Positions 28,343-48,913 of a stretch of DNA of 64,000 nt are shown piece by piece. Numbering within the stretch: the first letter of the stretch is position 1; every line of letters starts with the position of its first letter. The notes below the pieces were generated by a model. The model was not told where the DNA came from and ran no database searches. It saw nothing but the letters and a program-made list of their open reading frames with translations. A program made the translations under genes and the position numbers. The DNA is from a virus: positions 1 to 64,000 of IMG/VR virus record IMGVR_UViG_3300015195_000006; one strand, given 5' to 3'.

Positions 28343-28348
28343 AAGAAC

Positions 28349-29882: not shown

Positions 29883-29937
29883 AGACCGCGCTCGTCACAA
29901 TGGCATTCACCAAGGATCGGCAAAAGTGGGCAGAACT

Positions 29938-31959: not shown

Positions 31960-31975
31960 ATCACCCGCATAGAAT
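31948..31975 (+). promoter_or_regulatory. promoter placed for a leaderless GIY-YIG transcript
   Basis: TTGACT (31948-31953), 16 nt, TAGAAT (31970-31975), 6 nt, ATG 31982. Overlaps the methylase stop codon. Confidence 0.5.
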
Positions 31976-31981
31976 TCGAGT

Positions 31982-32647
31982 ATGCCAAAAAGTAATTTGC
32001 CTGGAATCTATGCGATTGTTAATCTTGCAAACGGGAAGATGACAACCTATGTTGGCTCTACGGGCAACGCAATCGGATTGAGATGGACAGAGCATAGAAC
32101 GAAATTGCGAAGCAATAAGCATTTCAATCGCTATCTTCAAAGCTCTTGGAACAAACACGGCGAAAGCGCGTTTAGATTCGAGGCATTGGAGAACGTGCTT
32201 GAATCGGGTTGGCTGCCAGAGCGAGAACAATTCTGGCTAGATGAGATTAGATCACATAGACCAGTTTACAATACTGGAAAGTGTGCGGCGAATCCGTTAT
32301 TAGATAAACCGATGTCTGATGCCACGAAAAAGAAATTGTCAGAAGCGCGCCTGTCTTTTTCGGATGACGTAAAGAAACGGTTAGCCGCGATGGTTTCAAA
32401 GGTGCATAAGGGCAAGGAAATCTCGAACGCGCAAAGAGAATTTATGCACTTTAGGATGCTAGGAAATAATAATCATCCGCCCGCCAAGCCGTATCCCGCA
32501 TTTGTAAATCAAGTAACGGGTAAAGTCATACCTAGCGGCATGGGTCTTAGAACGATGTGTCGGCAACAGAATCTAAACCAAGCGGCAATGTGGCGCGTGA
32601 TGAAGGGAATCTGCAAACAACACCTTGGGTGGGAGGTTCTAAAGTGA
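31982..32647 (+). CDS. GIY-YIG homing endonuclease (copy 2, paralog of copy 1)
   Basis: GIYAIVNLANGKMTTYVGSTGNAIGLRWTEHRTKLR...SSWNKHGESAFRFEALE. C-terminal PYPAFVNQVTGKVIPSGMGL parallels copy 1. Confidence 0.85.
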   Translation: MPKSNLPGIYAIVNLANGKMTTYVGSTGNAIGLRWTEHRTKLRSNKHFNRYLQSSWNKHGESAFRFEALENVLESGWLPEREQFWLDEIRSHRPVYNTGKCAANPLLDKPMSDATKKKLSEARLSFSDDVKKRLAAMVSKVHKGKEISNAQREFMHFRMLGNNNHPPAKPYPAFVNQVTGKVIPSGMGLRTMCRQQNLNQAAMWRVMKGICKQHLGWEVLK

Positions 32648-33330
32648 AGGACATTGCCCTGGTGACAATGGCTCTGACGCCAGACAGATTGAAAATGGGA
32701 GAGGAGTTGACATTTCCGCGAATGAGAGTCTATGCCAAGAAATACGGCATGGACTTTATCATAATCAAGAAATGTAAACGAAGTCCAACTCTGGGAGACA
32801 TATTTGACTGGGAAAGAGCTGACTGGCTGTATGATCTTTTGTTTCAGTATCGGAGGCTGATCCACATGGACGACGATGTAATCGTCCGCCAAGACGCCGA
32901 AGATATCAGCGACCTTCCTTTCGGCACGTTCTACGGCTTTGACAACGCGCCCTTCAATCCCGCCGAAGTAAGACGGTGCTGGCACCAAGCTCAATCCACC
33001 TGGCACGAATTCCGAGACTTCCCGCCAATGCAACACCTCTACAACAACGGAATGTTCGTCGTGGATTCATCCCTGCAACTTTTATTCGCACCCACTGATG
33101 CTGAACCCTACAACGTCAATTCGGATCAAACGCGCGAGTCTCACTATAAAGGAATGGGAATTCTTAATGCGCGACTCCATGCCTTGGGATATTCGTCTTC
33201 GTATCGCCCTGATTTATTTGGTGTATCTTATCAGCATCCAAAACCGTCCCCAAGTTTCCTGCACGTCCTTTGGCAAGACGGATCGAAGCAAGAAGCAGTA
33301 AAACACTTCATCGAGGAAATGGACAAATGA
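32644..33330 (+). CDS. putative glycosyltransferase (nucleotide-diphospho-sugar transferase fold)
   Basis: IHMDDDVIV is a DxD motif. GTG 32644 is in GTGA overlap with the upstream stop. Confidence 0.5.
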
Positions 33331-34232
33331 AACGGCTACTTCTAACCGGCGGCAACGGCTTCTTGGGAAAACACCTCGCCAAGCGACTCACCGACTACAA
33401 GGTCACCATCCCTGAATACGACCTGAGGAATTGGGAGAACTGCCAGCGCGTCACGCACAATCAGGACATTGTGATCCACCTCGCCGGACGAGTGGGCGGA
33501 ATTGGCTACAATCAAAAGAATCCTGGAACTCTCTTTTACGACAACGCCATTATGGGGATTCAACTGATAGAATCGGCTCGACTCAACGGCGTTTCAAAGT
33601 TTGTCACCGTAGGAACGGTCTGCGCCTATCCCAAACTCACAAACATCCCTTTCAAAGAAACCGACCTTTGGAACGGCTATCCCGAAGAAACCAACGCACC
33701 TTATGGTTTAGCAAAAAAGATGCTTTTGGTCCAAGGGCAAGCCTATCGGCAGCAGTACGGCTTCAACGCCATCTATCTCTTGCCGACCAATCTCTACGGA
33801 CCCGGCGACAACTTTGATCCATCCTCAAGCCACGTCATTCCTGCCATCATCCGCAAGATTCACGAAGCCCAAGTCGCAGGGCGCGACCAAGTTGAAGTGT
33901 GGGGAAGCGGGCTAGCCACGCGTGAATTCCTCTATGTCGAAGATGCCGCCGAAGGAATCTTGCTTGCCGCGGAAAACTACAACGAACCCAAACCGGTCAA
34001 CCTCGGCGGCTATAGTTTCATCTCGATCTCCGGACTTACAACGCTGATTGCAAAACTGATGCATTTCAACGGCGAAATCGTTTGGGATAAATCCCAACCC
34101 AACGGGCAACCGATGCGCACTCTAGATAAAACCAAAGCACTTGAATTTGGATTCAGAGCCAAAACCGAACTCAGCCAAGGACTTCAGGCAACGATCGAAT
34201 GGTATCATGCTCAACTTCTGCACCCTCTTTGA
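33327..34232 (+). CDS. fcl: GDP-L-fucose synthase (GDP-4-keto-6-deoxymannose epimerase/reductase)
   Basis: [13 protein letters not shown] Rossmann motif; [16 protein letters not shown]; catalytic YGLAKK; [22 protein letters not shown]; [16 protein letters not shown]. This is the characteristic Fcl/WcaG pattern. Confidence 0.85.
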
Positions 34233-35016
34233 TAAGGCGTACACGCCCAAGGGAATGGCTTTGCTGGCATCCATCAAACGCTGGATGCCGGATGCCAAGT
34301 GCTATGTGCTCTACCTTGGATCTGAATCGCCGCAGTTCGAGGAAGTGACCTTCCTACGAGATGTCATTACCGATGAACTCATTGAAGCCTCGGAAAACCG
34401 ATCCTACAAAGAATTCGTCTGGACACTCAGCGCTTGGTGGGTCTGGTATCTCTTGAAAACCCTAGACTCTGTCATTTACGTAGACGCCGACATGTTCTTT
34501 TTCAACCCGCTCGAACTACCTAAAACCGACATCGCCATCTGTCCGCATCGCTGGACTCCTCGGCACAAAGATAATTTGGTTGCCAATGGAATCTACAACG
34601 TTGGACTCATATCATTTCGCAATACACGAGCAAGCAAACGCTGTGCCAAGGATTGGAAAGACCAATGCCTTGAGTGGTGCTACGAAAAGCATGATGGTGA
34701 ACGATTCGGCGATCAGGGCTATCTCGATAACTGGGTCGAAACCTATGGGGCGTTTGTCATCAATCACTTGGGAATCGATCTCGCGCCCTGGAATCAGGAG
34801 CAATACCGCTACTGTCTGGAGAACGGACATTTATTCATTGACGATGGAAAGAACTGCGATCCGCTGGTGCTCTATCACTTTTCCGAGTTTGGCACTCTCC
34901 GACACGGCAAGCCCGTTTGGACCAACTACAAACTACACCCGATGGTCGCCAGTTACATCTACCCGACCTATCAAGCCGAGGTTGCAAAGTGGACGTTTGG
35001 CTCAAGCCTGAAGTAG
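34207..35016 (+). CDS. putative glycosyltransferase (GT8-like, DxD)
   Basis: [13 protein letters not shown] is a DxD motif. Start at ATG 34207 or 34255. Confidence 0.5.
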
Positions 35017-35579
35017 CCGAGGCACAAAGGCAACTCGTGCTCACCGAACTAAAGAATCCCAGCAAGACCCCAGCGCTCTCCTACTTTCTGCGAGTAATGG
35101 AGTCTTTGCCGAAAAAGGGCGGCACGTTTCTCGACGTGGGTTGCGGATGCGGTCACTACGGTTATCTCATCGATTTAAACTTCCCCCAATGGGACTACAT
35201 CGGCACCGACTATTCACCGGCTATGATCGAACGCGCCAAAAACATTGTGCCTCTGGAAACCTTTCGGGTCTGCGAATTCCTCGACAACAAATTCGAGCAG
35301 TATGACGCGGTGCTCATATCCCAAGTGATGGAACAAGCGCCCGACCCTTGGGACTGGCTCGATTATGCCGTTCAAAGAACACGCGGCTATTTGATCCTGC
35401 ACCGCCTCCGCCTCATCAAAGGATATTCTCGGCGGATCTCCGAACCCACTTATCTAGGACTTCCTTGCAAAAATTACGAGTGGAATTACAAACAGATGCT
35501 CAGACACCTCAGCCCGGACGCACTGGTGCTTCCGTGGCTCGATCAAAGACAATACACCATCGTACTGCCGCCAGTATGA
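34989..35579 (+). CDS. class I SAM-dependent methyltransferase
   Basis: GGTFLDVGCGCGHYG is SAM motif I. Start is uncertain (GTG 34989). Confidence 0.65.
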   Translation: MDVWLKPEVAEAQRQLVLTELKNPSKTPALSYFLRVMESLPKKGGTFLDVGCGCGHYGYLIDLNFPQWDYIGTDYSPAMIERAKNIVPLETFRVCEFLDNKFEQYDAVLISQVMEQAPDPWDWLDYAVQRTRGYLILHRLRLIKGYSRRISEPTYLGLPCKNYEWNYKQMLRHLSPDALVLPWLDQRQYTIVLPPV

Positions 35580-35626
35580 AAACTTGACCCACCCAGAAGC
35601 AGAAGCAGAAAAAGGAGCATACGGAA

Positions 35627-35884
35627 ATGTTGACACTTCGACACGTCGAAAAGAATGGGTACGAAAGCGTTCAGCAAGTGGCATCGGTATCACTCGAAAT
35701 GCCCGCTGAACACAATGAATATCACCCAACGCTAAATCGCCACAACGAAAACGGGCAAGTACTCGACGGTGGCTATGGCGATGGCAAGGTCTATGTAATG
35801 AACGAAAACGGCAAAACGGTTGCAGTCTACGATTTGGATGAATTGCAACTAGCCGCGAAAATCTCGAAAGAGAAGAAAAAGTAA
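35627..35884 (+). CDS. small conserved protein (85 aa), paralog of 50732..50953
   Basis: MLTLRHVEKNGYE...KVYVMNENGKTVAVYDL compared with VLTVRWLNNTGEF...DLFVMNEAGKTVADYHL. Confidence 0.55.
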   Translation: MLTLRHVEKNGYESVQQVASVSLEMPAEHNEYHPTLNRHNENGQVLDGGYGDGKVYVMNENGKTVAVYDLDELQLAAKISKEKKK

Positions 35885-35906
35885 TTGACCCTGGGTGGGT
35901 CAAGCC

Positions 35907-36656
35907 ATGAAAGTTCATCCACTCGACATCTCTTATCTCACGGAGCAGTTAGAACGCAAACAGCCCTTCTCGCTTGTGCGCTATGGCGACGGAGAGTTTT
36001 ACTCCATCCTCGGCGCATCAGGCGCAAACTGCGACGGCGCTGAATACAATCTGCCAAAACTCCGTGAATCGCTAGCACATACTCTCACCGAACCGAGAGA
36101 CTATCTCTACTGCATTGGTCCCAAAGTGATGAACCGCAAAAACGGCATCACGGAAAAGTCTGTCGAATGGATTGAGCAGAACGCACCTTCAATTCGCTGG
36201 CACACCTCCGAAACCATCCTTGAGGCATCGCTTGCTGGCAACCTAAAACCACTCACTCAGGCACTTGGAAAGGTGATGATCGTCGGACCGGTACATCTTC
36301 GTGGTCTTCCCATTCCTTTCAAAACTTTCGTCCAAGTCCCAACCATCAACGCATGGCTTCATTACGATATGATTCTCTACCTCATTCGCAGAGAACTCTA
36401 TCAAGTGGACACCATTCTTTTCTCGGCAGGGTTTGTGAGCAAGTGTGCGATATGGTCTCTCTTTCCGTCCGTAGGAGAAACCCACAATCTAATTGACATC
36501 GGGAGTTCCTTCGACAGTGCGGTGGGGGTTGACTCAAGGTCTTATTCTAGAAAACTAACACTGGAACAAAAGATTAGGCTTTCTGTTTTGAATTTCGGTA
36601 TCTCCGAAGAAACGGCACGCCAGTTATTGACAAGTGATAAGTCTGTATTAAAATAG
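35907..36656 (+). CDS. putative GT-D type glycosyltransferase (DUF1792-like)
   Basis: FSLVRYGDGEFYSILG matches the RxGDGE N-terminal motif of DUF1792/GT-D proteins. Confidence 0.5.
   Translation: MKVHPLDISYLTEQLERKQPFSLVRYGDGEFYSILGASGANCDGAEYNLPKLRESLAHTLTEPRDYLYCIGPKVMNRKNGITEKSVEWIEQNAPSIRWHTSETILEASLAGNLKPLTQALGKVMIVGPVHLRGLPIPFKTFVQVPTINAWLHYDMILYLIRRELYQVDTILFSAGFVSKCAIWSLFPSVGETHNLIDIGSSFDSAVGVDSRSYSRKLTLEQKIRLSVLNFGISEETARQLLTSDKSVLK
36627..36654 (+). promoter_or_regulatory. promoter placed for a leaderless GIY-YIG transcript
   Basis: TTGACA (36627-36632), 16 nt, TAAAAT (36649-36654), 6 nt, ATG 36661. Confidence 0.5.
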
Positions 36657-36660
36657 GATC

Positions 36661-37371
36661 ATGGGAAAATTCTACGTCTATGCACTCTCTTATCCTGACG
36701 GTACTGTTTTCTACGTTGGCAAGGGAAGCGATAAAACGCAGCGTCTTCGCAAACATGAGTTCAATGCAAGGCGTGGGCACAAATGTCATAGATGTAGTGT
36801 GATAAGGAAAATCTGGAGAGAGGGCGGGGCAGTTGGCTTTGAAAAGATATTTCAAACTGACAATGAAGATGTGGCTCTTTCAGAAGAAGTCCGCTTAATT
36901 GCTCACTATAGGTCTATTGGAGTTTGTCTAACAAACGAGACAAACGGTGGCGATGGCAAGTCCGGCTATATTGCATCGGCGGCAACCCGGTTAAAGCATA
37001 GATTGGCAATGCTAGGAAATAAGCATTCCCTTGGAAAACTTCTTTCCGAGGAACACAAAGCCGCCATTTCTGCTGCGTTACGCGACAAACCGAAGTCAGA
37101 AGAAGCTCGCAAAAGAATGAGCGACGCACAAAAGGGGAATAAGCACTGCCTCGGTCGGAAATGGACTCCTGAATTTCACGCAAAGTTTATTGCAAAAAGG
37201 AAGAATCATCCCGTGTCTAATAGCACTCGTGCCAAAATAAGTGCATCTCTAGCGGGTCATATCCCTTGGAATAAGGGATTAAAAACAGGGAAAGGTCTTA
37301 AACAGTCACCCGAAACAATCAAGAAAAGAACTGAAACCAGAAGGAAGAATCACCCAAACTGGTTCGATTAG
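36661..37371 (+). CDS. GIY-YIG homing endonuclease (copy 3) with NUMOD3-like repeats
   Basis: FYVYALSYPDGTVFYVGKGS...RLRKHEF, followed by repeated units of the xxHxxKISxxLxG type (EEHKAAISAAL, ARKRMSDAQKG, TRAKISASLAG). Confidence 0.8.
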   Translation: MGKFYVYALSYPDGTVFYVGKGSDKTQRLRKHEFNARRGHKCHRCSVIRKIWREGGAVGFEKIFQTDNEDVALSEEVRLIAHYRSIGVCLTNETNGGDGKSGYIASAATRLKHRLAMLGNKHSLGKLLSEEHKAAISAALRDKPKSEEARKRMSDAQKGNKHCLGRKWTPEFHAKFIAKRKNHPVSNSTRAKISASLAGHIPWNKGLKTGKGLKQSPETIKKRTETRRKNHPNWFD

Positions 37372-37409
37372 CCCTGAAAGCCCCTAACTTTTGAGTTTTA
37401 CGTTTCTAC

Positions 37410-37438
37410 TTGAAATCGCCTTACAAATTTGATATATT
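37410..37438 (+). promoter_or_regulatory. sigma70-type promoter
   Basis: TTGAAA (37410-37415), 17 nt, TATATT (37433-37438), 7 nt, ATG 37446. Confidence 0.45.
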
Positions 37439-37445
37439 AGGATTG

Positions 37446-37637
37446 ATGACGCCAATTCAAACGGACGCATTTCTGGCGATGCTTTGCGGGATGCGCGTTG
37501 CCTTGCTAGGCATCGTGGATTCGCTAGAAGTATTCCTGATTGCGAACGGCAAACTGAAAGAGCGCACCAGCGAGATACGGCGCGAATCAAAGGCACACTG
37601 TAGGAATTGCGAAGCAGCGAACGAAGTGATACAATAG
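37446..37637 (+). CDS. small ORF (63 aa), possibly leaderless
   Basis: The ATG lies 8 nt after the -10 hexamer. The track ORF's TTG start at 37410 coincides with the -35 hexamer. Confidence 0.35.
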   Translation: MTPIQTDAFLAMLCGMRVALLGIVDSLEVFLIANGKLKERTSEIRRESKAHCRNCEAANEVIQ

Positions 37638-37707
37638 TGGCAGTCGAGTAACCCGAAATAGGCAGTCCTCACGGAACGCCACTTTAATCGTAGCCGCCGC
37701 GCAAGCG

Positions 37708-37741
37708 AGCGCCACGAATGAAGTGGCGTTCTTTTTATTTT
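37708..37741 (+). terminator. intrinsic terminator
   Basis: AGCGCCAC-gaatgaa-GTGGCGTT followed by CTTTTTATTTT. The same 3' arm can also pair perfectly (11 bp) with GAACGCCACTT at 37674-37684. Confidence 0.6.
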
Positions 37742-37796
37742 ACCGAGGTGTCAAATTCCATATCCGGGGATCAGCGACCAAGCGACGATTGATAAG

Positions 37797-40700
37797 ATGG
37801 ATTCCTGTGTCAAGCAAGTAATGGCGCAAGGGAAGGACAAATCATCAGCGATCGCGATCTGCATGTCATCTATCGTCAAGCGCGACGGTCTCCCGCGTTA
37901 CATGGCATACATTGACAATGACTTTCCGAAGATCGCCTACAACGTCATTGACACGATCACCGGCGAGAAGCAATTCTTTACGTATGGCGTGGGGCATAAA
38001 CGATTCCAAACCCAGGAAGCCGCACAACACGCGGCAGACCAATTGAATGCTAAAGAGGCAAAGATAACCCAACGCGCCGATAGCGGCTTCTTCGTCGGGC
38101 TAAAAGTCCCATCGAATATTGCTCAAGATTACGAACTCGATGGAAACTCCGCAACCTGTCCTTATCAGCAAGAGGGCAGAAACGCCAACCCACAGGGATA
38201 CGAAGATTGGTGGGATGGATTCCTAGCCGCCAAGCATCACGCGGAGTGGCCCAATGTCGCAGGCGCGCAAGACCCATATCGCGAGACACGCCAAACCAAC
38301 TTCACTCGCATTCTCTTTCTGGTCAATCTCGAAAACGATGCCAACGACGACCCTGCTCTTATCGAGGAAGCTCGATCCGTCAAGACAATCCTTGAGACTC
38401 GCTTACCGACTGAACTTGTTTTCATCCGGACACCGCAAGATATCGAAGTCGCTTTAGCCAAGTTCGATCCAAGCGACACGTTCATTTACAACTGGGCTGA
38501 AAATCTACCGGGCTGGATTGAAGGCGGCGAAACCGCCACCTCGATTGTCGATGATGATTGGGCACACAGCGCCAGTGCCGCCGGGGTTCAGCGGCTCATC
38601 TTTGACCGAGCGCAGACCTACTTATTTTTACAGGAATGGGGTATTCCCATTCCCAAATTCTTGCTCATCTATGGGCTTGCGGACATTGGACAATGGGAAG
38701 ATTATCCCGCCTTTTTAGGACCGAACAACGTCCATGGCTCAGAATCTTTAGCCCTCGTCAATGATACCGAGGAAGCGCAGAAGCACATTGAGACACTGCA
38801 AACGAAACACCAACCGCCCTGGCTCTTTCGAGAGTATATTGGCGGAGAGCGACCTGCCCGTGAATTCTCGGTTGCCCTTCTCAGTGATGGAACGACGACA
38901 ACGGTTCTCCCGGTTGCTGAAACGAATTTTGAGGTCCTGCCGCACGATTACAAAACGGAACAGGATAAAGGCGTGGCAGGTCCGAGCGTTCAAGAACTCA
39001 ATACCTGTCCGGCGGTCTTAGACCCAGCCCTACAAGAGAAACTCACCGAGTGGTCACGCGAGATATTCCACAATGTGGGAATCAAGATTTATGGACGAGT
39101 GGACTGGCGACTTTACGAAGATGAATCAGACCCGATCTGCATCGACATCAATCCGGAACCGGAAACCTGTCACGACTCGCTCATGGAACAAATCGGACTT
39201 GCCGCGGGAATGTCGTTCGACCAACTCATTTTGAAGATTCTCGACAATGGAATTGCCTACGAAAAACGGCTTGAAGCCAGCGAGGAAAATATGCCACAAA
39301 GAGCGCAGATAATTGATGTCCGAGCGAAACCGCGTCAGATGAATCCACGTCCAATGAAACTCGTCGCGGCAAAGCAACGCGCTCTCTCCACCGGCGATGT
39401 ATTCCGCGCAAGTGGCTCAGCCGGGGGCGTGACTCTCGGAAAAGAGTATGCAATTATCTTTGTTGCTTCCAATATGGTAACCGTCCAACCAACGAGCGGA
39501 GGCGGCGGAACGATTGACTTGAGCGATTCAGAGTTTCAACAAGTGACGGGCGAAACGATAGCGAGAGCCAGTGAATACACCGTCAAGAAACAACCCGGCG
39601 GCAAATTTGTTGTGGTAGACAGCGCGGGCAAAGTTCACGGAGAGACATTTGACGACGAACTCACCGCGAAGAATAGTGCGGCATATCTAAACACCGCATT
39701 AGCAATGGGGCAAGAGATTCATCCAGGTCAGCGCGCCACTCTTCCCGTCAACAGTAAAAACCCCATCGCGCAACTCTTCAACTCCATCAAGCGAGCGTTT
39801 GAGCCCTACATCAAAGAGCAAGCCACCAACGGCGTGCCTGATTACGTCCCCACTGAATCAAAGGCAACGTGGATCCAAACCTACAACGATGCGATTGCCA
39901 AGTCTCGTACCCACGATGAGGCAGCGATGCTGGCAGATAAAGCCGCAGGGATTCAACGCGCAATGACCGCTCAGCGTCTTGTCTCTCAAATCCTCCAACG
40001 ATTCGATGAGATGAAGCGCGGTTACACCACAACTGGCACTTCTATTTTCTTCGACGACGGTAGCGAATATTCTGCCGCAGTCGAGAAACTTCAGGGACAA
40101 TTTTTATCGAACGACGCCAGCGTTCTCCAGATAAAATTCAAAGATGCGGAACAAATGCAGACCGCTATTGCTAGTCTCAGCGGTCAGCGCGACTCCGACA
40201 TCAAAGCGCCGATGAAGAACGGCGAGACCCTGCCGCAGATGCGCGCTCTCGACCCGCTTGACATCTACTTCGACAAAGGGCGCATGTTCGTCCTCGCTAC
40301 TGGCGACGGAAGGCTCTATCGCTTTGCGGTGAACGTCAAAAATGGAAACGTCAGTCTGTCAGAACGGACAGAGATTACCGAAGAACGCGCTACCCAATCC
40401 TTTCAAATCATCCGCGAGAACGGCAAAGTCCGTTGGCTTGCTATCGCTGCCTCAAGCGTCCTCAACCGTTCGGGCGAGATTGACTCCACGAAACTCTTTG
40501 ACTCATTTGTGGACTTTATCGATCGGTCCGGGATTTATCCCGTCCTCGACTTCTTCCACACCCGCGATGAAGTGAGACTCGGACAATCCGATTTCGTCGC
40601 TCGGGACGGCAATCTCTACATCTCGGCGGGCACGTTTGACGACACCGAGATCGCAAGAGCCGCGATTGAAACGCTCGAAAAGACACCCGACGACTGGGGC

Positions 40701-41678
40701 TTGTCCATCTCCTATCTAAAAACCCAGGAACCCGTGATGACACGGGTTGCTGATGGAATTGATATTCCCGTTTACACCGAAGGAATCAACGATTTTATCT
40801 CAGTCTTGCCAAAGACGCGCGCTTGCAATCTGTTCACCGTCATTGGCACACAAGGAGTTGAACGTATGAAGAAGGAAGTTTTCGACGCTTTGGTGTCATT
40901 GGTCGGACCTGAACGCGCCAAGACATTCTCAGCAAACGTCGACCAAACCAACCGCGTGATTGACGAGCAACGTCTTATCACACGCGCCGCGAAAGTCATT
41001 CGCCAGGGTGCGGCGTACGAGGAAGGCAAAGCGGCGGCGGTCGCTGATCCAAACTCGACCAATCCCTACCCCGCCGGTTCACCGGAAAACGCTGAATGGC
41101 AGAAGGGCTTCGATGAAGCGGCAAAGGGTGCTTCTGCACCCGCGGCGGATGCGCCTCCCGCTACTCAGCAACAGGCAGCGCCATCGCCCGATCCAACTCA
41201 AATGCAACCAGACTTGGGAGCCACCGGTACAGGTGCGGCTCAATTCTGTCCCCAGTGCGGACAACCCGTTCCGCCTGAAGCTACAGTTTGTCCCAACTGC
41301 GGCTATGACCTCACGCAACCGCAAGAGGTGCAAGTGGATCCGGCGTTGCAAGACCAAATCGTCGAACAGGCAGCTAGTCTCGCCGTTCGGCAGATTGGCA
41401 AACCGATCGCTGACCTTGCGAAAAGCGTGGAAGATCTGACCAAACTCGTCGCAGAATCCGTCAAGACACGGGCAACAGATGACGAGCGAATCAAGGCGCT
41501 TGAGAAAGATGAAGTAATCAAGCGACAAGAGTGGTCGGCTGACCTCCCAAAAGGGAAGCGTCCGCAAATCATCGTGCGCCCGCGAGCGGTTGAACGTGAA
41601 GCCGCGCCTCTCACGCCCGATGAGATTGCCAAAGCAACGATCGCGAAACTCAGCAATCAAACGAAACTGAATCCATAA
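37797..41678 (+). CDS. 1293-aa head polyprotein: ATP-grasp (D-Ala-D-Ala-ligase-like) domain, HK97-type prohead protease domain, zinc ribbon and scaffold-like coiled coil
   Basis: ATP-grasp, about nt 38300-39260: FREYIGGERPAREFSVALL and GRVDWRLYEDESDPICIDINPEPE...GMSFDQLILKIL. Protease, about nt 40400-40900: DFFHTRDEVRLGQSDFVARDGNLYISG..DDWGLSISYL. CPQCG...CPNCG at about 41245-41310. Helical C-terminus directly precedes the capsid gene. Confidence 0.75.
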   Translation: MDSCVKQVMAQGKDKSSAIAICMSSIVKRDGLPRYMAYIDNDFPKIAYNVIDTITGEKQFFTYGVGHKRFQTQEAAQHAADQLNAKEAKITQRADSGFFVGLKVPSNIAQDYELDGNSATCPYQQEGRNANPQGYEDWWDGFLAAKHHAEWPNVAGAQDPYRETRQTNFTRILFLVNLENDANDDPALIEEARSVKTILETRLPTELVFIRTPQDIEVALAKFDPSDTFIYNWAENLPGWIEGGETATSIVDDDWAHSASAAGVQRLIFDRAQTYLFLQEWGIPIPKFLLIYGLADIGQWEDYPAFLGPNNVHGSESLALVNDTEEAQKHIETLQTKHQPPWLFREYIGGERPAREFSVALLSDGTTTTVLPVAETNFEVLPHDYKTEQDKGVAGPSVQELNTCPAVLDPALQEKLTEWSREIFHNVGIKIYGRVDWRLYEDESDPICIDINPEPETCHDSLMEQIGLAAGMSFDQLILKILDNGIAYEKRLEASEENMPQRAQIIDVRAKPRQMNPRPMKLVAAKQRALSTGDVFRASGSAGGVTLGKEYAIIFVASNMVTVQPTSGGGGTIDLSDSEFQQVTGETIARASEYTVKKQPGGKFVVVDSAGKVHGETFDDELTAKNSAAYLNTALAMGQEIHPGQRATLPVNSKNPIAQLFNSIKRAFEPYIKEQATNGVPDYVPTESKATWIQTYNDAIAKSRTHDEAAMLADKAAGIQRAMTAQRLVSQILQRFDEMKRGYTTTGTSIFFDDGSEYSAAVEKLQGQFLSNDASVLQIKFKDAEQMQTAIASLSGQRDSDIKAPMKNGETLPQMRALDPLDIYFDKGRMFVLATGDGRLYRFAVNVKNGNVSLSERTEITEERATQSFQIIRENGKVRWLAIAASSVLNRSGEIDSTKLFDSFVDFIDRSGIYPVLDFFHTRDEVRLGQSDFVARDGNLYISAGTFDDTEIARAAIETLEKTPDDWGLSISYLKTQEPVMTRVADGIDIPVYTEGINDFISVLPKTRACNLFTVIGTQGVERMKKEVFDALVSLVGPERAKTFSANVDQTNRVIDEQRLITRAAKVIRQGAAYEEGKAAAVADPNSTNPYPAGSPENAEWQKGFDEAAKGASAPAADAPPATQQQAAPSPDPTQMQPDLGATGTGAAQFCPQCGQPVPPEATVCPNCGYDLTQPQEVQVDPALQDQIVEQAASLAVRQIGKPIADLAKSVEDLTKLVAESVKTRATDDERIKALEKDEVIKRQEWSADLPKGKRPQIIVRPRAVEREAAPLTPDEIAKATIAKLSNQTKLNP
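39742..39757. repeat. copy of 16-bp dyad motif
   Basis: TTCCCG TCAA CAGTAA. Encodes LPVNSK in the polyprotein. Confidence 0.85.
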
Positions 41679-41686
41679 GGAGCATT

Positions 41687-43123
41687 ATGCCTTTACCAAA
41701 ACGCGCGAAGCAGACTGACGCGCAATTCCTTCAGTCGCTTCGCCAAACAATCGAACGAGCCGAGGGACCCGGTGAATCAAATCTCTCGGTGTCCACTGGC
41801 GGCACGATCTACGGCTGTTGCGGATTGTTCGACCTCTGCGGCGACCAAGATCTGATGTCGCTCTCCCTCGAAGGAACAAACAAGTTCCTCGACTGGATCG
41901 GCTGGGAAATGACCGATGTCTGCCGCATCCGCAAGAACTTCGTCGCGTGGGTTGCGCCCGCGCAAACCGAAAGCGGCTACACCGCCGGTTACATCTCCGA
42001 TCCCTGCGCTGACGCTGAAGCGGTTGACTGGGGTGTGTGTGATTTCACCCTGGAAGACTTTGGGCGTTTGCGCCGCAAGACTCCCGTCCGCGATATCACG
42101 AAGGTTGGCGTTCGCCTGTGCGAAGCGCAACCGCGCTATCGCCTCGACGGTTCTCCGATCACCGACGACCTCGAATATGATATGCGCATCGTGTCGGAAG
42201 GCATCGTCCAAGACATGAAACGCTACATCATTTCGGGCGCGAAAACAACCGCCGGTCTGTTCGACGGATTCCAAGCCTTGATCAACACAGGCTACAAGAA
42301 TTCAGACGGGCATCTCTGCCAGTTGATGGACTCGATCGTCATCGATTGGAACGCGAACACCCTGAACGGTGGCGCGGGAATGACCTGGAACAGCGCGGCA
42401 ATCGGCTCATCCTACAACTTCATCGATGTTTTGATGGCGGCGTATCGTCGCGTGCGCCAGCGCATCTCCTGGGCTCCGGCTCTCGCGGCAATGGATATGA
42501 AGCCCGGCGATATGGTCATCGTCGGAACGACAAACTTTATCCAGTGCTTGCTCGATGCGTTCACCTGTTGGTCGGTCTGTCCGCAAGTGGGCTCGCTGAT
42601 TGACCTGCAAGCGGCATTGATGACGCTGGACGTGCACGAAGCGCGCCAGTTCCGCGATGCTTTGAATGGCGGGATGTTCGGCGCGGGTCAAATCACGCTC
42701 GATGGCTTCACCATCCCTTGTGTCGCGTACGACTGGGGTCTGACGACAGGAACGCTGGACGATGTGTATCTCTTGACCGGGCAAGTCGGAAACGTCAAAC
42801 TCTTGCAAGGTCAGTTGAACGACATGCGTCCTGCTGCAACGCACGAAGCCACCGGTGGGAAATATGCTTACACCGATGGCGGACGCTTCCTGACGTGGAG
42901 TGAGTTCGATGGAACTTGTTTGCAGCGCTACGTCGAACAACAGCCGCGCCTCTTGGCGTGGGCGCCTTGGTGTCAGGTAAGATTTGAGGACGTAAAATGT
43001 ACTCGACCGGGTGGACGAATTTCACCTGATCCTACCTCCTCGTTCTTTCCCGAGACATCGTTCCGCGGAACGATTTGCCCTCCCGAATTGGGACAAGCAA
43101 ACTCCGGACCGCTACTCGGTTAG
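41687..43123 (+). CDS. major capsid protein
   Basis: 478 aa, immediately downstream of the protease/scaffold gene and followed by a strong hairpin. Called by position. Confidence 0.65.
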   Translation: MPLPKRAKQTDAQFLQSLRQTIERAEGPGESNLSVSTGGTIYGCCGLFDLCGDQDLMSLSLEGTNKFLDWIGWEMTDVCRIRKNFVAWVAPAQTESGYTAGYISDPCADAEAVDWGVCDFTLEDFGRLRRKTPVRDITKVGVRLCEAQPRYRLDGSPITDDLEYDMRIVSEGIVQDMKRYIISGAKTTAGLFDGFQALINTGYKNSDGHLCQLMDSIVIDWNANTLNGGAGMTWNSAAIGSSYNFIDVLMAAYRRVRQRISWAPALAAMDMKPGDMVIVGTTNFIQCLLDAFTCWSVCPQVGSLIDLQAALMTLDVHEARQFRDALNGGMFGAGQITLDGFTIPCVAYDWGLTTGTLDDVYLLTGQVGNVKLLQGQLNDMRPAATHEATGGKYAYTDGGRFLTWSEFDGTCLQRYVEQQPRLLAWAPWCQVRFEDVKCTRPGGRISPDPTSSFFPETSFRGTICPPELGQANSGPLLG

Positions 43124-43141
43124 GTTCGTAGTAAATAGAAA

Positions 43142-43169
43142 CTGGGTGCGGATTGAAATCCGCACCCAG
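43142..43169. terminator. strong GC-rich hairpin after the capsid gene (bidirectional)
   Basis: CTGGGTGCGGAT-tgaa-ATCCGCACCCAG, extended by GTTCGTA (43124)/TACGAAC (43170). Lies between convergent 41687..43123(+) and 43186..43854(-). Confidence 0.75.
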
Positions 43170-43185
43170 TACGAACTTTAACAAT

Positions 43186-43854
43186 CTAATCGGATTCCCA
43201 CAATTCCTTAAAGCGTTGCGCGGCGCTACTGATTTTAATTTGCCAGTCGCTCGGAAGTTCGGACAAGTCCTTGTCCCGTTTGGCTGAATTACAGGATTTG
43301 CAAAGAATCACCGCATTTCCCGGTTTCAATTCATACCCTTTTGACACAGGGAATACGTGATCAATCGCCAATCTCTCGGTTGAACCGCAAACAACGCAGG
43401 CGGTTTGAGTTTTGAAAAGAAATTCCTGCATTTCAAGCGTCCAATTGCGATCCGCATTCCTTCTTTGATGCTTACTCCATCTCCAATAAAAAGGAGTGTG
43501 GCTAAGTCCGTGTTTAGTAAACAGCCGTTTTGCTTTGGCGACATTGACTTCTTTGGAGTAACAACCGCAACTTTTACTGGCACCATTAGTAAGACTATTT
43601 TGTCCGATGGTTTTCTCATTGCCGCAATCGCAATGGCACAACCATAAAGAACCGTGTTCGTCACTGCCGTTTTGTTTGATGGCGACCCATCGCCCAAATC
43701 GCTTACCAGACAGGTCTCGTGTGCGCGCCTTGTTTCGAGCAACGGTAGCACAGTAGTTGCCGCAAAACTTACTTCTGTGTTCCTGACTTGGCTTGACCGG
43801 ATATTCCGTTCCGCACTCTTCACAAATCTTTTTGACTTTCATTTTAAGACTCAT
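43186..43854 (-). CDS. HNH endonuclease
   Basis: ACVVCGSTERLAIDHVFPVSKG...VILCKSCNSAKRDK, plus N-terminal Cys-rich modules. Confidence 0.8.
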   Translation of the reverse strand: MSLKMKVKKICEECGTEYPVKPSQEHRSKFCGNYCATVARNKARTRDLSGKRFGRWVAIKQNGSDEHGSLWLCHCDCGNEKTIGQNSLTNGASKSCGCYSKEVNVAKAKRLFTKHGLSHTPFYWRWSKHQRRNADRNWTLEMQEFLFKTQTACVVCGSTERLAIDHVFPVSKGYELKPGNAVILCKSCNSAKRDKDLSELPSDWQIKISSAAQRFKELWESD

Positions 43855-44086
43855 CGTCAGGATCGATATGCAGGTCTCGGCGCAAAATAACCAATAGGCA
43901 ACCGGGATTATGGTCTACTTTCCAGTAGTAATCGCGGTTCCCGTAAACATCGGCTTTCCCGCGGCTCAATTCGTAAGCATCCGCATTGCAGATATTGCAA
44001 AAAGAATTATCGCAATCAAGTCCGCCCGTGCCGATGAAGTATTTTGTTTTGGACAGCAGTTTTGCAACATCATTCATTATTGCCAT
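43844..44086 (-). CDS. hypothetical Cys-rich protein (80 aa)
   Basis: Track ORF with AAGGAG Shine-Dalgarno. Co-oriented with the HNH gene. Confidence 0.5.
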   Translation of the reverse strand: MAIMNDVAKLLSKTKYFIGTGGLDCDNSFCNICNADAYELSRGKADVYGNRDYYWKVDHNPGCLLVILRRDLHIDPDDES

Positions 44087-44199
44087 TTTGCTCCTTAAAA
44101 CAGTTCGCCCCGCCTCCCACTAGTGCAAGTAGCAGGAAACAGGGCGATGGCTGGAAATAGAAATGCCCGCTTGCACCGGACATGATAATTGCTGAATTC

Positions 44200-44228
44200 A
44201 ATATAAGATAGAAAGTGATTAAAGTCAA
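44200..44228 (-). promoter_or_regulatory. sigma70-type promoter of the antisense two-gene cassette
   Basis: Minus strand reads TTGACT (44228-44223), 17 nt, TATATT (44205-44200). Confidence 0.5.
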
Positions 44229-44230
44229 GA

Positions 44231-45973
44231 GTGGATAATCTCACAGTAATCATTCCATTCCGCGATGGACAAGCGACGATCCTTAAACTGCTTGCTTCGC
44301 TACCAAAACTCCCGGTCATTATCGTGGATGACCAATCGAAAGAACCTTACCAATCAAATAAACATCAAGTCATTCGGCTTGACCAACGCGGCTACTTCTC
44401 CGGTGCGGTCAACAAAGGGATTCAGTCCTGTGACACCGATGTTCTGATCCTCAATCAAGACGTATGGCTTGAGGATTTCAACTGGGAGGATCTGGACACC
44501 CAGCGTAAGACCTTCGCAATGATCGGCGATGGAGTCTTCGGGCATCCTGCTTTCCCTCAAGGATATGTGCAAGGCACATTCATGTTCCTCCGTCGAGACG
44601 CGATCGAGAAGGTCGGGCTTCTCAACGAGAAAGATTACCCGCTGTGGGGCTCAACGTGCGAATACCAGACCCGTCTTTGCCGCCTGGGATTCGAGGCACT
44701 CCCCCTAAAGATTGGCGCTCTCCATCACGAGCGCAAAGGGAATTACGGCAGTTCCATCAAACAGGCACTCAAAGATGAACCTAACAAGCAATCGCTCTTG
44801 GTCCGAACGCCACCGGAGATTTCAGTCATTATCACCTGTCACAACTACGGCAGATTCCTGAACGATGCGGTCAATTCCTTAATCGGCGGAAATACGATTC
44901 TTGGTGAGATGGCGCCACAGACCTTTCAGTCTTTTGAAGTGATCATCGTCGACGATGCCAGCACCGACGAAACGCCCGAAATTGGCAAGTCCTTGGCAAA
45001 CGACTGGAAAGGAATTCACTACCTTCGGCTTGATAAACTGGGCGGCTCAGCAAGAGCAATGAACGCAGGGATCAAGGCATCTTTCGGAAAAGTGATTGCA
45101 CCGCTCGATGCCGACGATATGATGGAGTCGAATCGGCTCGAAACCTTGTATAATGTGCTCAAAGAGAATCCGCACAGTTGCGTGTATGACGATGTGATGT
45201 GGGTCGAGCGAAACAAACGCAGTCGCGTGGATCGGTTGCCTGATTACGAATTTGAAGAACTGGTCCAAAAGAACGGCATCCACAAGGGCGTGATGTATTC
45301 AAGACAAGCTTGGATTGATACCGGTGGCTATCCCGAATCCATGCAACACGGTCGTGAGGACTGGGCATTCAATATCGCCCTCGGATTCAAGGGCTACTGC
45401 GGCAAGCACATCGAACAACCGCTCTATCTTTACCGAAGGCACGAACTCAATCGCACGAATCAGCAAGAAAAAGACATGCTGAAAGGCTCGGTCAACTGGC
45501 GCCGAGTTTTCTACGAACAAATTCACGCTCTCTATCCAATGCTACAGACAGGAGAAAGACCTATGGGTTGCTGCGGAGGCGGCAGAGCCGCTAACCAAAC
45601 CATTCAAACAGGAAGGACGCAAGGTGCATTTATGACACAACTCGGTCAGCAAGGTATGGTGATGCTTCAATACCTTGGCAACAAGGCAGGCACGATCTCG
45701 TTCTACGGCTCGGTCACCAAAACGCGCTATCTCTTCGGCGGTCAACGCACCGTCGGCTATGTGGACTCAAGAGATGTTGAAGGCTTTGTCAAACTCTACG
45801 AAGGCAAAAGCCCACTCTTCCAGGTCCAACAAACTGAAGAGCCGAAAGTTTACAAAGCGGCGCAGTCTACTTCACCAGAAAGAATCACTCGAGATATGGC
45901 TACCTCGGCTCCCGGCGACTCTGCGCTTGTAGCCAAGTCGCGCAAGCCTCGCAAAGTCAAAGATGTGGCTTGA
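44231..45973 (+). CDS. two-domain family 2 glycosyltransferase (580 aa)
   Basis: Two GT2 N-terminal signatures: TVIIPFRDGQ...VIIVDDQS and ISVIITCHNYGRFLNDAVNS...VIIVDDASTDET...DADD. Confidence 0.8.
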   Translation: MDNLTVIIPFRDGQATILKLLASLPKLPVIIVDDQSKEPYQSNKHQVIRLDQRGYFSGAVNKGIQSCDTDVLILNQDVWLEDFNWEDLDTQRKTFAMIGDGVFGHPAFPQGYVQGTFMFLRRDAIEKVGLLNEKDYPLWGSTCEYQTRLCRLGFEALPLKIGALHHERKGNYGSSIKQALKDEPNKQSLLVRTPPEISVIITCHNYGRFLNDAVNSLIGGNTILGEMAPQTFQSFEVIIVDDASTDETPEIGKSLANDWKGIHYLRLDKLGGSARAMNAGIKASFGKVIAPLDADDMMESNRLETLYNVLKENPHSCVYDDVMWVERNKRSRVDRLPDYEFEELVQKNGIHKGVMYSRQAWIDTGGYPESMQHGREDWAFNIALGFKGYCGKHIEQPLYLYRRHELNRTNQQEKDMLKGSVNWRRVFYEQIHALYPMLQTGERPMGCCGGGRAANQTIQTGRTQGAFMTQLGQQGMVMLQYLGNKAGTISFYGSVTKTRYLFGGQRTVGYVDSRDVEGFVKLYEGKSPLFQVQQTEEPKVYKAAQSTSPERITRDMATSAPGDSALVAKSRKPRKVKDVA

Positions 45974-46274
45974 ACTCGTCCTAAGCGCGTTCGCGTGCTA
46001 CCGCTTGTCCGAAATGATCGCCACGGATGATGGATTATTCGATTGTTTCCTTAGACTCCGCATCCTCTCCGGAGTTTATGACTTGGGCAAGGACGGACGA
46101 CCGCGAACGAACTTAGGACGCCTGATGCAATGTCCGTATTGCGTCGGGGTATGGCTAGCAGGACTCATCACCCTGCTAGTTTTCCCGGTAACAGTAAATT
46201 CAGTTCTCTACTGGCTAGCCATCTCAGGCAGTCAGGCATTTCTACAAACGATTGGAGGTCGAAGTGGTTCTTAA
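45963..46274 (+). CDS. small membrane protein (DUF1360-like)
   Basis: MWLELVLSAFACYRLSEMIATDDGLFD...CPYCVGVWLAGLITLLVF. Confidence 0.45.
   Translation: MWLELVLSAFACYRLSEMIATDDGLFDCFLRLRILSGVYDLGKDGRPRTNLGRLMQCPYCVGVWLAGLITLLVFPVTVNSVLYWLAISGSQAFLQTIGGRSGS
46182..46197. repeat. copy of 16-bp dyad motif
   Basis: TTCCCG GTAA CAGTAA. Encodes FPVTVN in 45963..46274. Confidence 0.85.
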
Positions 46275-46536
46275 CACGGCAAAGCGAGACGTTGAGAGGG
46301 CGGTTGCGATGGTTCGCGCCGATCCCTACGTCGCCAAGATCGCACAAGCCATCCAGAGTTACATTGACAGCCAATTGACCGATGGGACTGTTTCGATGTC
46401 AAAAGCGAACCTGAAACAGACGGTCTCGCCCCCATCGGGCGGACCAAGCGGAACAAACGCGCAATACATCTACGGGCAGATGTTCGATGAAGCAATTCAA
46501 TCCTTGACGGGAAAGTATAAAAAGTTTGTCCAATGA
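46264..46536 (+). CDS. hypothetical protein (90 aa)
   Basis: GTG 46264 follows GGAGG. Confidence 0.45.
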   Translation: MVLNTAKRDVERAVAMVRADPYVAKIAQAIQSYIDSQLTDGTVSMSKANLKQTVSPPSGGPSGTNAQYIYGQMFDEAIQSLTGKYKKFVQ

Positions 46537-47606
46537 CCGTCGTCCCTTCCCTTTCTGTTCTCGATGAATCGCTCTCCGCTGTAAAGCTGGCGCGTTACGC
46601 GGCAATCGTCGGCTTGCACGAATGCAATCTATTCGGCGTGAACTTTGGCGATTCAAGCCAATGCGAACCGCTCTGGTCGCTTCAACAGCGAGCCATGCTC
46701 TTGCGCTATCTCATCGAAGCACAGAGCGAGATCGAGCAAGTTGCCGGGTTTTTCCTGATGCCAAAGTATGTCATCGGTGAGCAACACCCCTATCGCTATC
46801 CACTCGTTTCAAAGTGGATGAAAGTTATCGCGATGGGTGTCAAAGCGATCAGCAACATCTCGCTTGGAAAGACAGTAGATTACACCAACGACCCGTGTGA
46901 GATAACTGTAACCACCGCTGTTACGAATGACGAGATTCGGATTTATCACGCAGGAACGGACATTGAGATTACGCCAAGTTCAATGGTCAACGTCGCTGGA
47001 ACGCTCACGATCGAAGTGCCTCGCTGTCGGATGGTTGAGATTGCAGCGCAGGACACGCCGCAGGGTGGGTTAGACTACAACGATGTGCCGCCCAGCGGAT
47101 CCAGCCCGTTCGTTTTTACCGTTGACGTGAAAAGAGTCTATACCGACACGACTGATACCGGGGATTTGGTTTATCCACATTCCAAGAGCGATGGGCTGTC
47201 TTGTTCTTGCCAAGTCACCTGTTCGGAGTTTCTGCACGAAGCCTGCGCGTATTTGAAAGTGCCTAAAACAGGCGTCATTGACGTATTAAAAACCAACAAC
47301 GGAATCCCGTCGAATGCTTGTGGCTGTTTTTCGAGACGCGCGAGTTATGCACGGATCAACTATCTTTCAGGGATGGATCCGCTGACGAGCCAAGCCGAGG
47401 ACACAATTATACGGCTCGCTCATTCAAAAATGGCGCTTAAACCTTGTGGCTGTGACATTGCAAATTCCGTGTGGGAGCGTGACCGTCACATTCCAGATCA
47501 ACTTGATTCGCAGAGATTAGGCAATCCGTTCGGGGTTTCCGATGGCGCGTGGGTTGCTTGGAAATTTGCCAATGCTTTGAAGATTTGGCGCGCCGGGGTT
47601 CTCTAA
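46533..47606 (+). CDS. hypothetical virion-module protein (357 aa)
   Basis: Track ORF in the head-to-tail joining region. No motif recognised. Confidence 0.6.
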   Translation: MTVVPSLSVLDESLSAVKLARYAAIVGLHECNLFGVNFGDSSQCEPLWSLQQRAMLLRYLIEAQSEIEQVAGFFLMPKYVIGEQHPYRYPLVSKWMKVIAMGVKAISNISLGKTVDYTNDPCEITVTTAVTNDEIRIYHAGTDIEITPSSMVNVAGTLTIEVPRCRMVEIAAQDTPQGGLDYNDVPPSGSSPFVFTVDVKRVYTDTTDTGDLVYPHSKSDGLSCSCQVTCSEFLHEACAYLKVPKTGVIDVLKTNNGIPSNACGCFSRRASYARINYLSGMDPLTSQAEDTIIRLAHSKMALKPCGCDIANSVWERDRHIPDQLDSQRLGNPFGVSDGAWVAWKFANALKIWRAGVL

Positions 47607-47613
47607 TCAAGAG

Positions 47614-47629
47614 TTCCCGGTGACAGGAA
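47614..47629. repeat. copy of 16-bp dyad motif, intergenic
   Basis: TTCCCG GTGA CAGGAA. Lies between the stop at 47606 and the GTGGAG Shine-Dalgarno of 47643..48428. Confidence 0.85.
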
Positions 47630-47642
47630 AAGTGGAGACACA

Positions 47643-48428: not shown

Positions 48429-48913
48429 TCGTTGTCCGTTCCTTCTCAACCTTCAAGCCATTGAAAGAAAGCGTCTTTCGCGAAGAATCCAAGAAAGCAC
48501 TCCAACGGCTTGAGAAGAATGTCCTGGATGACTTCCGTCGCACGACCAAAACCTGGAAACGGCAACCGAAGTTCACCAGCAAGATCGTCGTAGATCGGGC
48601 GCAGATCGCGCTCTTTGTCGGGACCGATGACAAGATTTACGGTTATGTGGATAAAGGCACGAAGCCGCACATCATCCGAGCGAAAACGAAAAAGGGCTTG
48701 ATCTTCCTAACCGGTGGAACACCCAAGACGACACCCAACGTGATTCAGGCGTTTCCATCGAAGCCCGGAACAAAGTGGAATCGCAAGATGCAGGTGAAGA
48801 ATCCCGGAACGAAAGCAAGGAACTTCACCGCCATCATCACCAAGACGTTAAATAAGGAATTTCAAAACGAAATGAGACTAGCAATGGAACGATTTGCTCG
48901 AAGGTCTAAATGA
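48425..48913 (+). CDS. possible HK97 gp10-like neck / tail-completion protein
   Basis: Size, position, and IYGYVDKGTKPHII resembling the gp10-family (Y)VExGT block. Tentative. Confidence 0.4.
   Translation: MIVVRSFSTFKPLKESVFREESKKALQRLEKNVLDDFRRTTKTWKRQPKFTSKIVVDRAQIALFVGTDDKIYGYVDKGTKPHIIRAKTKKGLIFLTGGTPKTTPNVIQAFPSKPGTKWNRKMQVKNPGTKARNFTAIITKTLNKEFQNEMRLAMERFARRSK

Follow-up and report, generated by a model that had tools for sequence, protein, structure and literature searches.

The locus and its polyprotein

The DNA analysed here comprises the first 64,000 nucleotides of the IMG/VR virus record IMGVR_UViG_3300015195_000006 (hereafter the window, to which all unprefixed positions refer). 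It encodes a 1293-residue protein in which a domain resembling D-Ala-D-Ala ligase (Ddl) of the ATP-grasp type, a prohead protease, a zinc ribbon and a scaffold-like helical tail follow one another in one open reading frame (ORF). The frame is uninterrupted from its first ATG to its stop, with 3879 nt free of stop codons, and the single ORF reported in an earlier note on this DNA is thus confirmed, as is the order of domains proposed there. The product is a genuine head-assembly polyprotein. An identical protein is recorded once, on a 64,475-bp contig of the Joint Genome Institute (JGI), and the window is therefore nearly the whole genome of an uncultured phage. Neither the polyprotein nor the 478-residue product of the next gene downstream had a tblastn match among 50,697 GenBank phages, and megablast of a 20-kb segment (window 30000-50000) against GenBank phages returned only a 167-nt match in a methylase gene. 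The features discussed below are collected in Table 1.

Table 1. Features of the polyprotein and of its surroundings, with positions in the window.
Feature	Position (nt)	Strand	Remarks
Polyprotein ORF	37797..41678	+	1293 codons, range including the stop; ATG start, no internal stop
Terminator-like hairpin and T-run	37707..37745	+	About 50 nt 5' of the polyprotein ATG
N-terminal region, aa 1-93	37797..38075	+	SAIAIC helix, then beta/alpha unit; ends TQR93/A; no homologues
Linker, aa 94-168	38076..38300	+	Low confidence; CPY..W.GF (RMF-like) motif; directly before ligase
Ddl-like ATP-grasp, aa 169-498	38301..39290	+	Three domains; Pfam, NCBIfam, PDB sequence, Foldseek, alignment
R502 in PQR/AQI	39300..39302	+	Candidate cleavage site, 4 residues past ligase end
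Middle region, aa 503-654	39303..39758	+	QRA at R528 (KQRALS) and R646 (GQRATL)
Start of family-homologous region, aa 655-818	39759..40250	+	Includes R721; family alignment
Prohead protease domain, aa 819-1023	40251..40865	+	Assemblin/HK97-like fold; alignment, model, hhalign
Internal AGGAG, 8-nt spacer, ATG (Met1024)	40853..40868	+	Candidate nested scaffold start
Scaffold-like C-terminal part, aa 1024-1293	40866..41678	+	Alignment, model
Zinc ribbon (CPQC...CPNC), aa 1150-1172	41244..41312	+	Above Pfam thresholds
Helical tail, aa 1176-1293	41322..41675	+	Homologous to family C-terminal tails
478-aa Cys/Trp-rich protein	41687..43123	+	Own AGGAG ribosome-binding site; 8 nt 3' of polyprotein
TerS	21154-21828	+	Late, rightward module
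TerL	21873-23168	+	Late, rightward module
530-aa ORF	23165-24757		Portal by position only; no family match
Glycosyltransferases (three or four)	27032-27706, 28998-29882, 44231-45973
NAD-dependent epimerase	33270-34232
Nucleotide-diphospho-sugar-transferase-like ORF	34141-35016
Homing endonucleases	28349-29035, 31982-32647, 36661-37371 (+), 43186-43854 (-)		Three GIY-YIG/NUMOD and one HNH
833-aa DNA methyltransferase	29458-31959		N6_N4_Mtase match in two stretches

A Ddl-like ATP-grasp domain

The earlier note had read an ATP-grasp layout at about nt 38300-39260, and Pfam, NCBIfam, PDB and Foldseek searches all place a domain there, with the limits given in Table 1. The Pfam profile PF07478 (Dala_Dala_lig_C) covers aa 296-482 at an E-value of 6.6e-12, its 45.8 bits exceeding the gathering score of 24, solved Ddl chains match by sequence (E 7e-6), and NCBIfam Ddl models match with E-values down to 7e-17, far under their curated cut-offs (about one quarter). 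The cut-offs for D-Ala-D-Ala ligase proper were missed, with 61 bits against 243 for PRK01372 and 39.5 against 245.65 for TIGR01205, and the ATP-grasp region has no match to the N-domain family PF01820. In an AlphaFold2 (AF2) model of aa 1-660 the domain has moderate confidence, with a predicted local distance difference test score (pLDDT) of 60-90 against 54 for the model overall. The top 50 PDB matches of a Foldseek search with this model were all Ddl or VanA structures (E ~1e-13), with target template modelling (TM) scores of 0.6-0.75 and about 335 aligned columns covering all three Ddl domains.

To map residues, the domain was aligned with DdlB of E. coli, with a genuine Ddl and with its two closest cellular relatives; residue roles (phosphate lysines, D-Ala site, metal site) follow DdlB. 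Conserved with respect to DdlB are R255/D257 (here R434/D436), E270/N272 (D450/N452), E180 (E346), E187 (E356) and S281/L282, with S461 conserved also in the sister copy described below. The predicted Mg2+/acyl-phosphate site, R434, D436, D450 and N452, is common to the window protein and to proteins P0002, P0174 and P0175. In contrast, the D-Ala site is lost (DdlB E15, S150 and Y216 correspond to N183, G314 and Q389) and the glycine-rich loop GSSxG of Ddl reads HGSES. By these alignments the domain is a Ddl-like ATP-grasp but not a D-Ala-D-Ala ligase.

A sister ligase fused to a portal protein

A search of 5.8 billion protein clusters gave a single close relative of the ligase, P0002, with 55% identity over 331 aa. 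It is encoded on a 12.4-kb contig (L001) of an unrelated phage with different head genes, where the ligase (aa 349-676; PF07478 score 50.5 bits) lies C-terminal to a portal segment (Pfam portal positions 170-318 at aa 6-154). The portal profile is split in this contig between L001:2866-3531 and P0002 aa 6-154, two overlapping ORFs (L001 2866-6399), and a frameshift or sequencing error is probably responsible; MuF is a separately translated gene 3' of the portal. Portal C-termini point to the capsid interior. Both fusions would thus put the ligase inside the head, and this interior location is all that the portal-fused and protease-fused ligases have in common.

No further phage copy of the ligase was found in a word-index search, a scan of IMG/VR, two scans of JGI metagenomes or a scan of GTDB. 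The word-index search yielded two distant cellular Ddl-like proteins only, and the GTDB scan one housekeeping Ddl from a Gemmatimonadales metagenome-assembled genome. The P0002 contig also contains a 1054-aa ORF (L001 7838-11002) that by eye resembles a protease-scaffold-coat fusion; as a relative of the window polyprotein or of the 478-aa protein it was rejected, having no sequence relation to either.

The protease belongs to a large unannotated family

Neither the whole protein nor its sub-fragments gave a match to a protease family hidden Markov model (HMM) in Pfam (E up to 10), PHROGs or NCBIfam, and when the family alignment described here was run as a profile against the PDB, it returned coiled-coil noise only and no protease. 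The protease call thus rests on fold and on hhalign. With aa 781-1068 as query, a word-index search gave 26 proteins at 40-48% identity, the best with an E-value of 7e-63; almost none of them has a Pfam domain and, the weakest match excepted, they are 429-504 aa long. When 1.84 billion representatives were searched exhaustively with HMMER, this metagenomic family grew to 1082 relatives at E<1e-3, 352 of them at E<1e-30; the relatives are all 330-730 aa in length. In the 26-sequence alignment, members match the window protein from aa ~655 onward, and residues N890, R891, D896, S897, D902, H921, S970 and R1063 are invariant.

The region aa 650-1293 was modelled with AF2 (core pLDDT values of 85-94), and the model matched T4 gp21 (5jbl; probability 1.00, TM 0.5) and the herpesvirus assemblins (0.9-0.98) in a Foldseek search of the PDB. 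In BFVD there were 66 matches at E<1e-3, mostly labelled as prohead, COG3740 or HK97 proteases. Comparison with HK97 gp4 by hhalign gave an E-value of 0.0025 at a probability of only 12%, and aligned FFH921 with FNH65 and GLS970 with GMS114. H65 and S114 are the catalytic residues of gp4, and the spacing between His and Ser is 49 residues in both proteins; the candidate catalytic residues here are H921, encoded at nt 40557-40559, and S970, encoded at nt 40704-40706. By modelled fold and putative dyad, the domain is an HK97/assemblin-like prohead protease of a distinct, unannotated family. What had been proposed earlier, an HK97-type protease, therefore holds for the motif, the assemblin fold and the H921/S970 dyad; it does not hold for membership of PF04586 / MEROPS S78, to which, as to other protease HMMs, there is no match.

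Standalone members of the family correspond to window aa ~655-1293. They begin with an N-terminal helix (NP..LF....) and a conserved ERA site. The protease comes next, then a Met that is likewise conserved, a variable linker that is acidic or rich in Pro, a long helix and, at the C-terminus, a basic segment containing ..RPR... The window protein has two insertions of its own within aa ~676-805, at aa ~676-708 and aa 740-805. N-terminal extensions of up to ~400 aa occur in other family members, and ChaB is the only Pfam domain in them: genuine ChaB domains stand at the N-terminus of P0003, P0054 and P0163, and a search for enzymatic cargo in the ten members with the longest extensions found ChaB domains only. 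The ligase-bearing extension of 650 aa is seen in no other family member. We incline to the view that a complete protease-scaffold gene (aa ~655-1293), belonging to a large uncultured phage lineage, gained a 650-aa N-terminal cargo region, the main domain of which is the Ddl-like ATP-grasp.

The N-terminal extension and candidate cleavage sites

Apart from the ligase, the pieces of the extension, which include a small beta/alpha unit at aa ~593-636 of the middle region, have no homologue in the loci of the relatives or elsewhere in the window. An origin of these pieces from separate genes was considered and rejected, as none was found as a stand-alone gene in the relatives. Short helical segments resembling ChaB lie at 37797-37890 and 39801-39900 (SAIAICMSS; VPDYVPTESKATWIQTYNDAIAK). 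A motif like that of RMF/CrpP, (C/N)PY...W..GF..A, occurs twice, at 38145-38234 (aa 117-146), directly before the ligase, and at 41010-41123 (aa 1072-1109), in the linker between protease and scaffold; Pfam RMF matches the second copy only and below threshold, at 20.9 bits where the cut-off is 27.9 (E 4e-4).

The polyprotein contains five copies of the tripeptide QRA where 0.42 are expected (p = 5e-5), and 18 of RA against 7.1 expected. The five QRA sites (R93, R502, R528, R646 and R721) are positioned at domain borders. One of them, R721 (IQR/AMT, nt 39957-39959), is a family-conserved site at which Arg is present in 92% of sequences; most members have Glu before it, and in 21 of 24 sequences the next residue is Ala. 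In a set of 127 representatives of the family, [EQKDNT]RA was found 113 times N-terminal of the protease against 44 expected, with a sharp peak at 90-110 aa on the N-terminal side of the NR..EIDS motif and a second cluster in proteins with long extensions. On the C-terminal side, the Arg of ITR/A at R1063 (40983-40985) is the invariant residue noted above, and RPR1263/A (41583-41585) is ~80% conserved. From this conservation we infer that (Q/E)-R-A motifs are cleavage sites of the prohead protease, with Arg at P1.

A predicted nested scaffold gene

A Met following the protease is conserved throughout the family, and at five of six loci AAGGAG, GAGGT or GAGGAG stands 6-8 nt before it. These sequences resembling Shine-Dalgarno sites are encoded via differing amino-acid contexts. 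In the window the corresponding codon is that of Met1024 (Table 1). This arrangement suggests a nested scaffold gene starting at Met1024, with internal initiation predicted, whereas the polyprotein's own start ATG has no Shine-Dalgarno sequence. A rare protease fusion and an abundant scaffold would then share a C-terminus, by which the protease enters the procapsid, and the ligase would travel along.

The helical tail has 33% identity to a protein of another family locus (L003), and aa 1182-1235 form one long helix in the model. The zinc ribbon is a linker insertion not present in 25 aligned family members. Both elements had been recognised in the earlier note, which placed them just before a capsid gene; they stand, while the product of the next gene has no similarity to known coat proteins.

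Neighbouring genes and related loci

The 478-aa protein encoded immediately downstream showed no similarity in Pfam, PHROG, NCBIfam, PDB or GenBank phages, hhalign against HK97 gp5 was negative, and a 357-aa ORF further downstream had no PDB match. Five related contigs have the same gene order: a protease-scaffold gene, a gene for a 427-445-aa protein with 55-56% identity to the 478-aa protein, two glycosyltransferases, DUF1360 and a protein of ~347 aa. By its position in this conserved synteny, we presume the 478-aa protein to be the coat protein. It has a 25-aa N-terminal extension ending in ERA right before the conserved core, and the homologue in contig L002 has NRA; the ERA and NRA immediately precede the point at which three such homologues become alignable. 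None of the five related contigs contains an ATP-grasp gene. In one related locus (L008 5064-5288) a small protein with a Pfam match to Acb2/Tad1-hairpin, a family of anti-CBASS/Thoeris sponges, is encoded just 5' of the protease-scaffold gene.

In the window itself, the head module is broken up by non-structural genes (27032-36656 and 43186-45973), and one homing endonuclease gene lies directly 5' of the polyprotein and another directly 3' of the 478-aa gene. The 530-aa ORF that follows TerL overlaps a 281-aa ORF in another frame (24528-25373) by 230 nt. In the methyltransferase the best N6_N4_Mtase stretch accounts only for positions 1-144 of the 221 in the profile, a pattern suggestive of an insertion (an intein or other domain), and ~167 nt of the gene have 79% identity to Burkholderia phage KL4. 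The abundance of glycosyltransferases in the head module suggests that virion proteins are glycosylated in this lineage.

A packaged ligase and the alternatives

Taking these lines together, we regard it as slightly more probable than not that the ligase is a capsid-targeted cargo, which the prohead protease frees and which probably leaves the head together with the DNA. The full-length protein would be made in small amounts from its start without a Shine-Dalgarno sequence, and the nested scaffold (aa 1024-1293) in larger amounts from the internal AGGAG-ATG. Through the shared C-terminal helical tail both products would assemble together with the coat protein and so come to lie within the procapsid, where the His921/Ser970 protease would cut after Arg at R93, R502, R528, R646, R721, R1063 and R1263. 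Cleavage would release a ligase fragment of ~45 kDa (aa 94-502) inside the head, and this fragment would most likely leave with the DNA and, in the cell that is being infected, join carboxylates to amines at the expense of ATP. Delivery into the procapsid had been suggested in the earlier note and is supported indirectly by the portal-fused homologue, by the bracketing (Q/E)RA motifs and by the predicted nested scaffold start. Encapsidation itself, like cleavage, ejection, ligase activity and substrate, is something that we infer. A broader proposal is that two unrelated phages independently package an active amide-bond ligase, one on a protease-scaffold and one on a portal carrier, release it at Arg-Ala and inject it to modify a host molecule; this we offer as a speculation that may well prove wrong.

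Several observations weigh against a packaged and active ligase. Directly 5' of the polyprotein there is a terminator-like hairpin and no obvious promoter, and the polyprotein is known from one metagenomic contig. Cleavage with Arg at P1 is argued from motif conservation, and the coat identity of the downstream 478-aa gene is presumed from position. The ligase clade has two members only, and its conservation is therefore beyond statistical assessment. Finally, the ATP-phosphate lysines of DdlB, K97, K144 and K215, correspond to R271, G308 and E388 in the window protein. The equivalent positions of P0002 are R452, R489 and E566, and all three are Lys in the cellular relatives. The alignment of the nucleotide site, which the earlier note had named as a check, therefore has a divided outcome, with the three lysines lost and the Mg2+/transition-state residues and E346/E356 kept. 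Because the lysines are replaced, the catalytic activity of the domain is uncertain, and the window copy may be a poor ATP binder.

These replacements are an argument for an alternative that we consider improbable yet worth weighing, namely that the ATP-grasp domain has degenerated into a pseudo-enzyme. It would still be packaged, whether as cargo or as an internal protein of the head, but would act by binding a host protein, a nucleotide, DNA or the scaffold and not by ligation. The altered HGSES loop, the absence of counterparts to the D-Ala residues E15, S150 and Y216, and scores far under the curated Ddl cut-offs (61 bits against 243) are in line with decay. However, R434, D436, D450, N452, E346, E356 and S461 have been kept in two copies from unrelated phages that are only 55% identical, and the D-x-N form (D450/N452) is present also in the nearest cellular relatives, in which the lysines are intact. 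In carbamoyl-phosphate synthetase, Arg occupies both of the first two lysine positions and is compatible with catalysis. The Gly308 codon, GGA, is one transition from the Arg codon AGA. The Arg-for-Lys replacements in the sister copy, as in carbamoyl-phosphate synthetase, together with the closeness of GGA to AGA, soften the concern over the lost lysines.

Rather less probable, in our judgement, is that the ligase works on the phage's own coat, scaffold or glycan decorations, before assembly or in the procapsid, where it might attach amino acids or create amide links, and is not injected. Fusion would give it stoichiometric contact with scaffold and coat, the empty procapsid would be accessible to ATP, and the glycosyltransferases, the epimerase and the nucleotide-sugar-transferase-like protein of the head module suggest modified virion proteins. 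Against this, none of the five sequenced relatives with a glycosyltransferase-rich head module has the ligase, which is therefore not part of the conserved glycosyltransferase machinery. The 12.4-kb P0002 locus has no glycosyltransferase matches, and interior location is all that the two tethered copies share.

That the fusion is an artefact or accident, in which mis-assembly, a sequencing frameshift or recent loss of a stop codon joined an ATP-grasp gene to a protease gene, we think very improbable. In its favour, the protein is on one contig only, no other family member has such an extension, the start of the homologous module at aa ~655 coincides exactly with that of the standalone genes, and the split portal of L001 shows that frameshifts occur in such assemblies. 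Against it, the frame runs for 3879 nt without a stop and has no Met or GTG with a ribosome-binding site at the junction, many family members have N-terminal extensions, the sole homologue of the ligase is likewise part of a head-protein fusion, and the five family-type QRA sites at the extension's domain borders (p = 5e-5), which bracket its domains, imply co-evolution with the protease.

Significance and comparison with known systems

In the literature we found no earlier description of an ATP-grasp domain joined to a prohead protease, portal or capsid protein. New here are the Ddl-type ATP-grasp as a payload, the N-terminus of a protease-scaffold as its carrier, and the unannotated protease family. 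Phage enzymes loaded into the head include T4 Alt, P1 Dar and fusions to MuF or portal proteins, and the payloads are mostly ADP-ribosyltransferases, nucleases, methylases, polymerases and lysins. If the ligase is indeed delivered, amide-bond formation joins the chemistry that phages deliver with their DNA, as a new biochemical class of injected effector, and its target could point to an unrecognised weakness of the host or to a means of countering host defences. The locus would also illustrate a natural route of cargo loading, in which a protein is fused to the N-terminus of a protease-scaffold and flanked with the protease's own cleavage sites, and this route could be copied for engineered protein delivery by phage capsids. 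By-products of the analysis are a large unannotated prohead-protease family, a predicted cleavage motif, (E/Q)-R/A, and a predicted nested scaffold gene.

The ATP-grasp domain is like Ddl and VanA (PF07478 and PF01820) in its three-domain fold, its R-x-D and (E/D)-x-N motifs, the two nucleotide-site glutamates and the residues corresponding to S281/L282. It differs from them in lacking PF01820, the D-Ala site and the three lysines, in scoring about 4-fold under the cut-offs, and in being part of a virion polyprotein. The protease, for its part, has the same predicted fold as HK97 gp4 (MEROPS S78 / PF04586), as also T4 gp21 and the herpesvirus proteases, with the His...Ser dyad in register, a C-terminal tail after the catalytic domain and a gene just 5' of the presumed coat gene. 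Unlike HK97 gp4, it belongs to a separate family of more than 1000 representatives that has no GenBank phage match, and it carries a scaffold-length tail and a unique 650-aa N-terminal cargo.

Protease and scaffold are encoded by nested genes in lambda (C/Nu3), Mu (I/Z), P2 (gpO) and the herpesviruses (UL26/UL26.5). The window protein resembles the lambda C/Nu3 type in having protease and scaffold in one frame, with a conserved candidate internal ribosome-binding site and ATG at the scaffold part, and in that there is no separate scaffold gene before the next structural gene. To our knowledge, none of the known nested examples has an unrelated enzyme in front of the protease. In the window such an enzyme does precede the protease, and internal initiation is a prediction.

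The closest functional parallels are with packaged effectors. T4 Alt and the internal proteins of T4 have a capsid-targeting sequence, are loaded with the scaffold core and are trimmed by the prohead protease. In both the window protein and P0002 the effector domain is covalently fused to an assembly protein of the head interior, in a late-gene context. Effector domains fused to portal or MuF proteins have been read as packaged and injected (PMC5512222), and in the polyvalent proteins a built-in peptidase is expected to cut the effectors free (Iyer et al. 2017, PMC5512222). The text of that paper describes no Ddl-type ATP-grasp, its mentions of ATP-grasp concerning RNA ligases only (PMC5512222). 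Like the polyvalent proteins, the window polyprotein joins an enzyme to a head-assembly protein, with release by a peptidase expected, and P0002 is literally a fusion of portal and effector. Unlike both the polyvalent proteins and the T4 cargo, the carrier in the window is a prohead protease-scaffold and not MuF, a portal or a short targeting peptide, and processing would be by the prohead protease where in polyvalent proteins it is by an MPTase.

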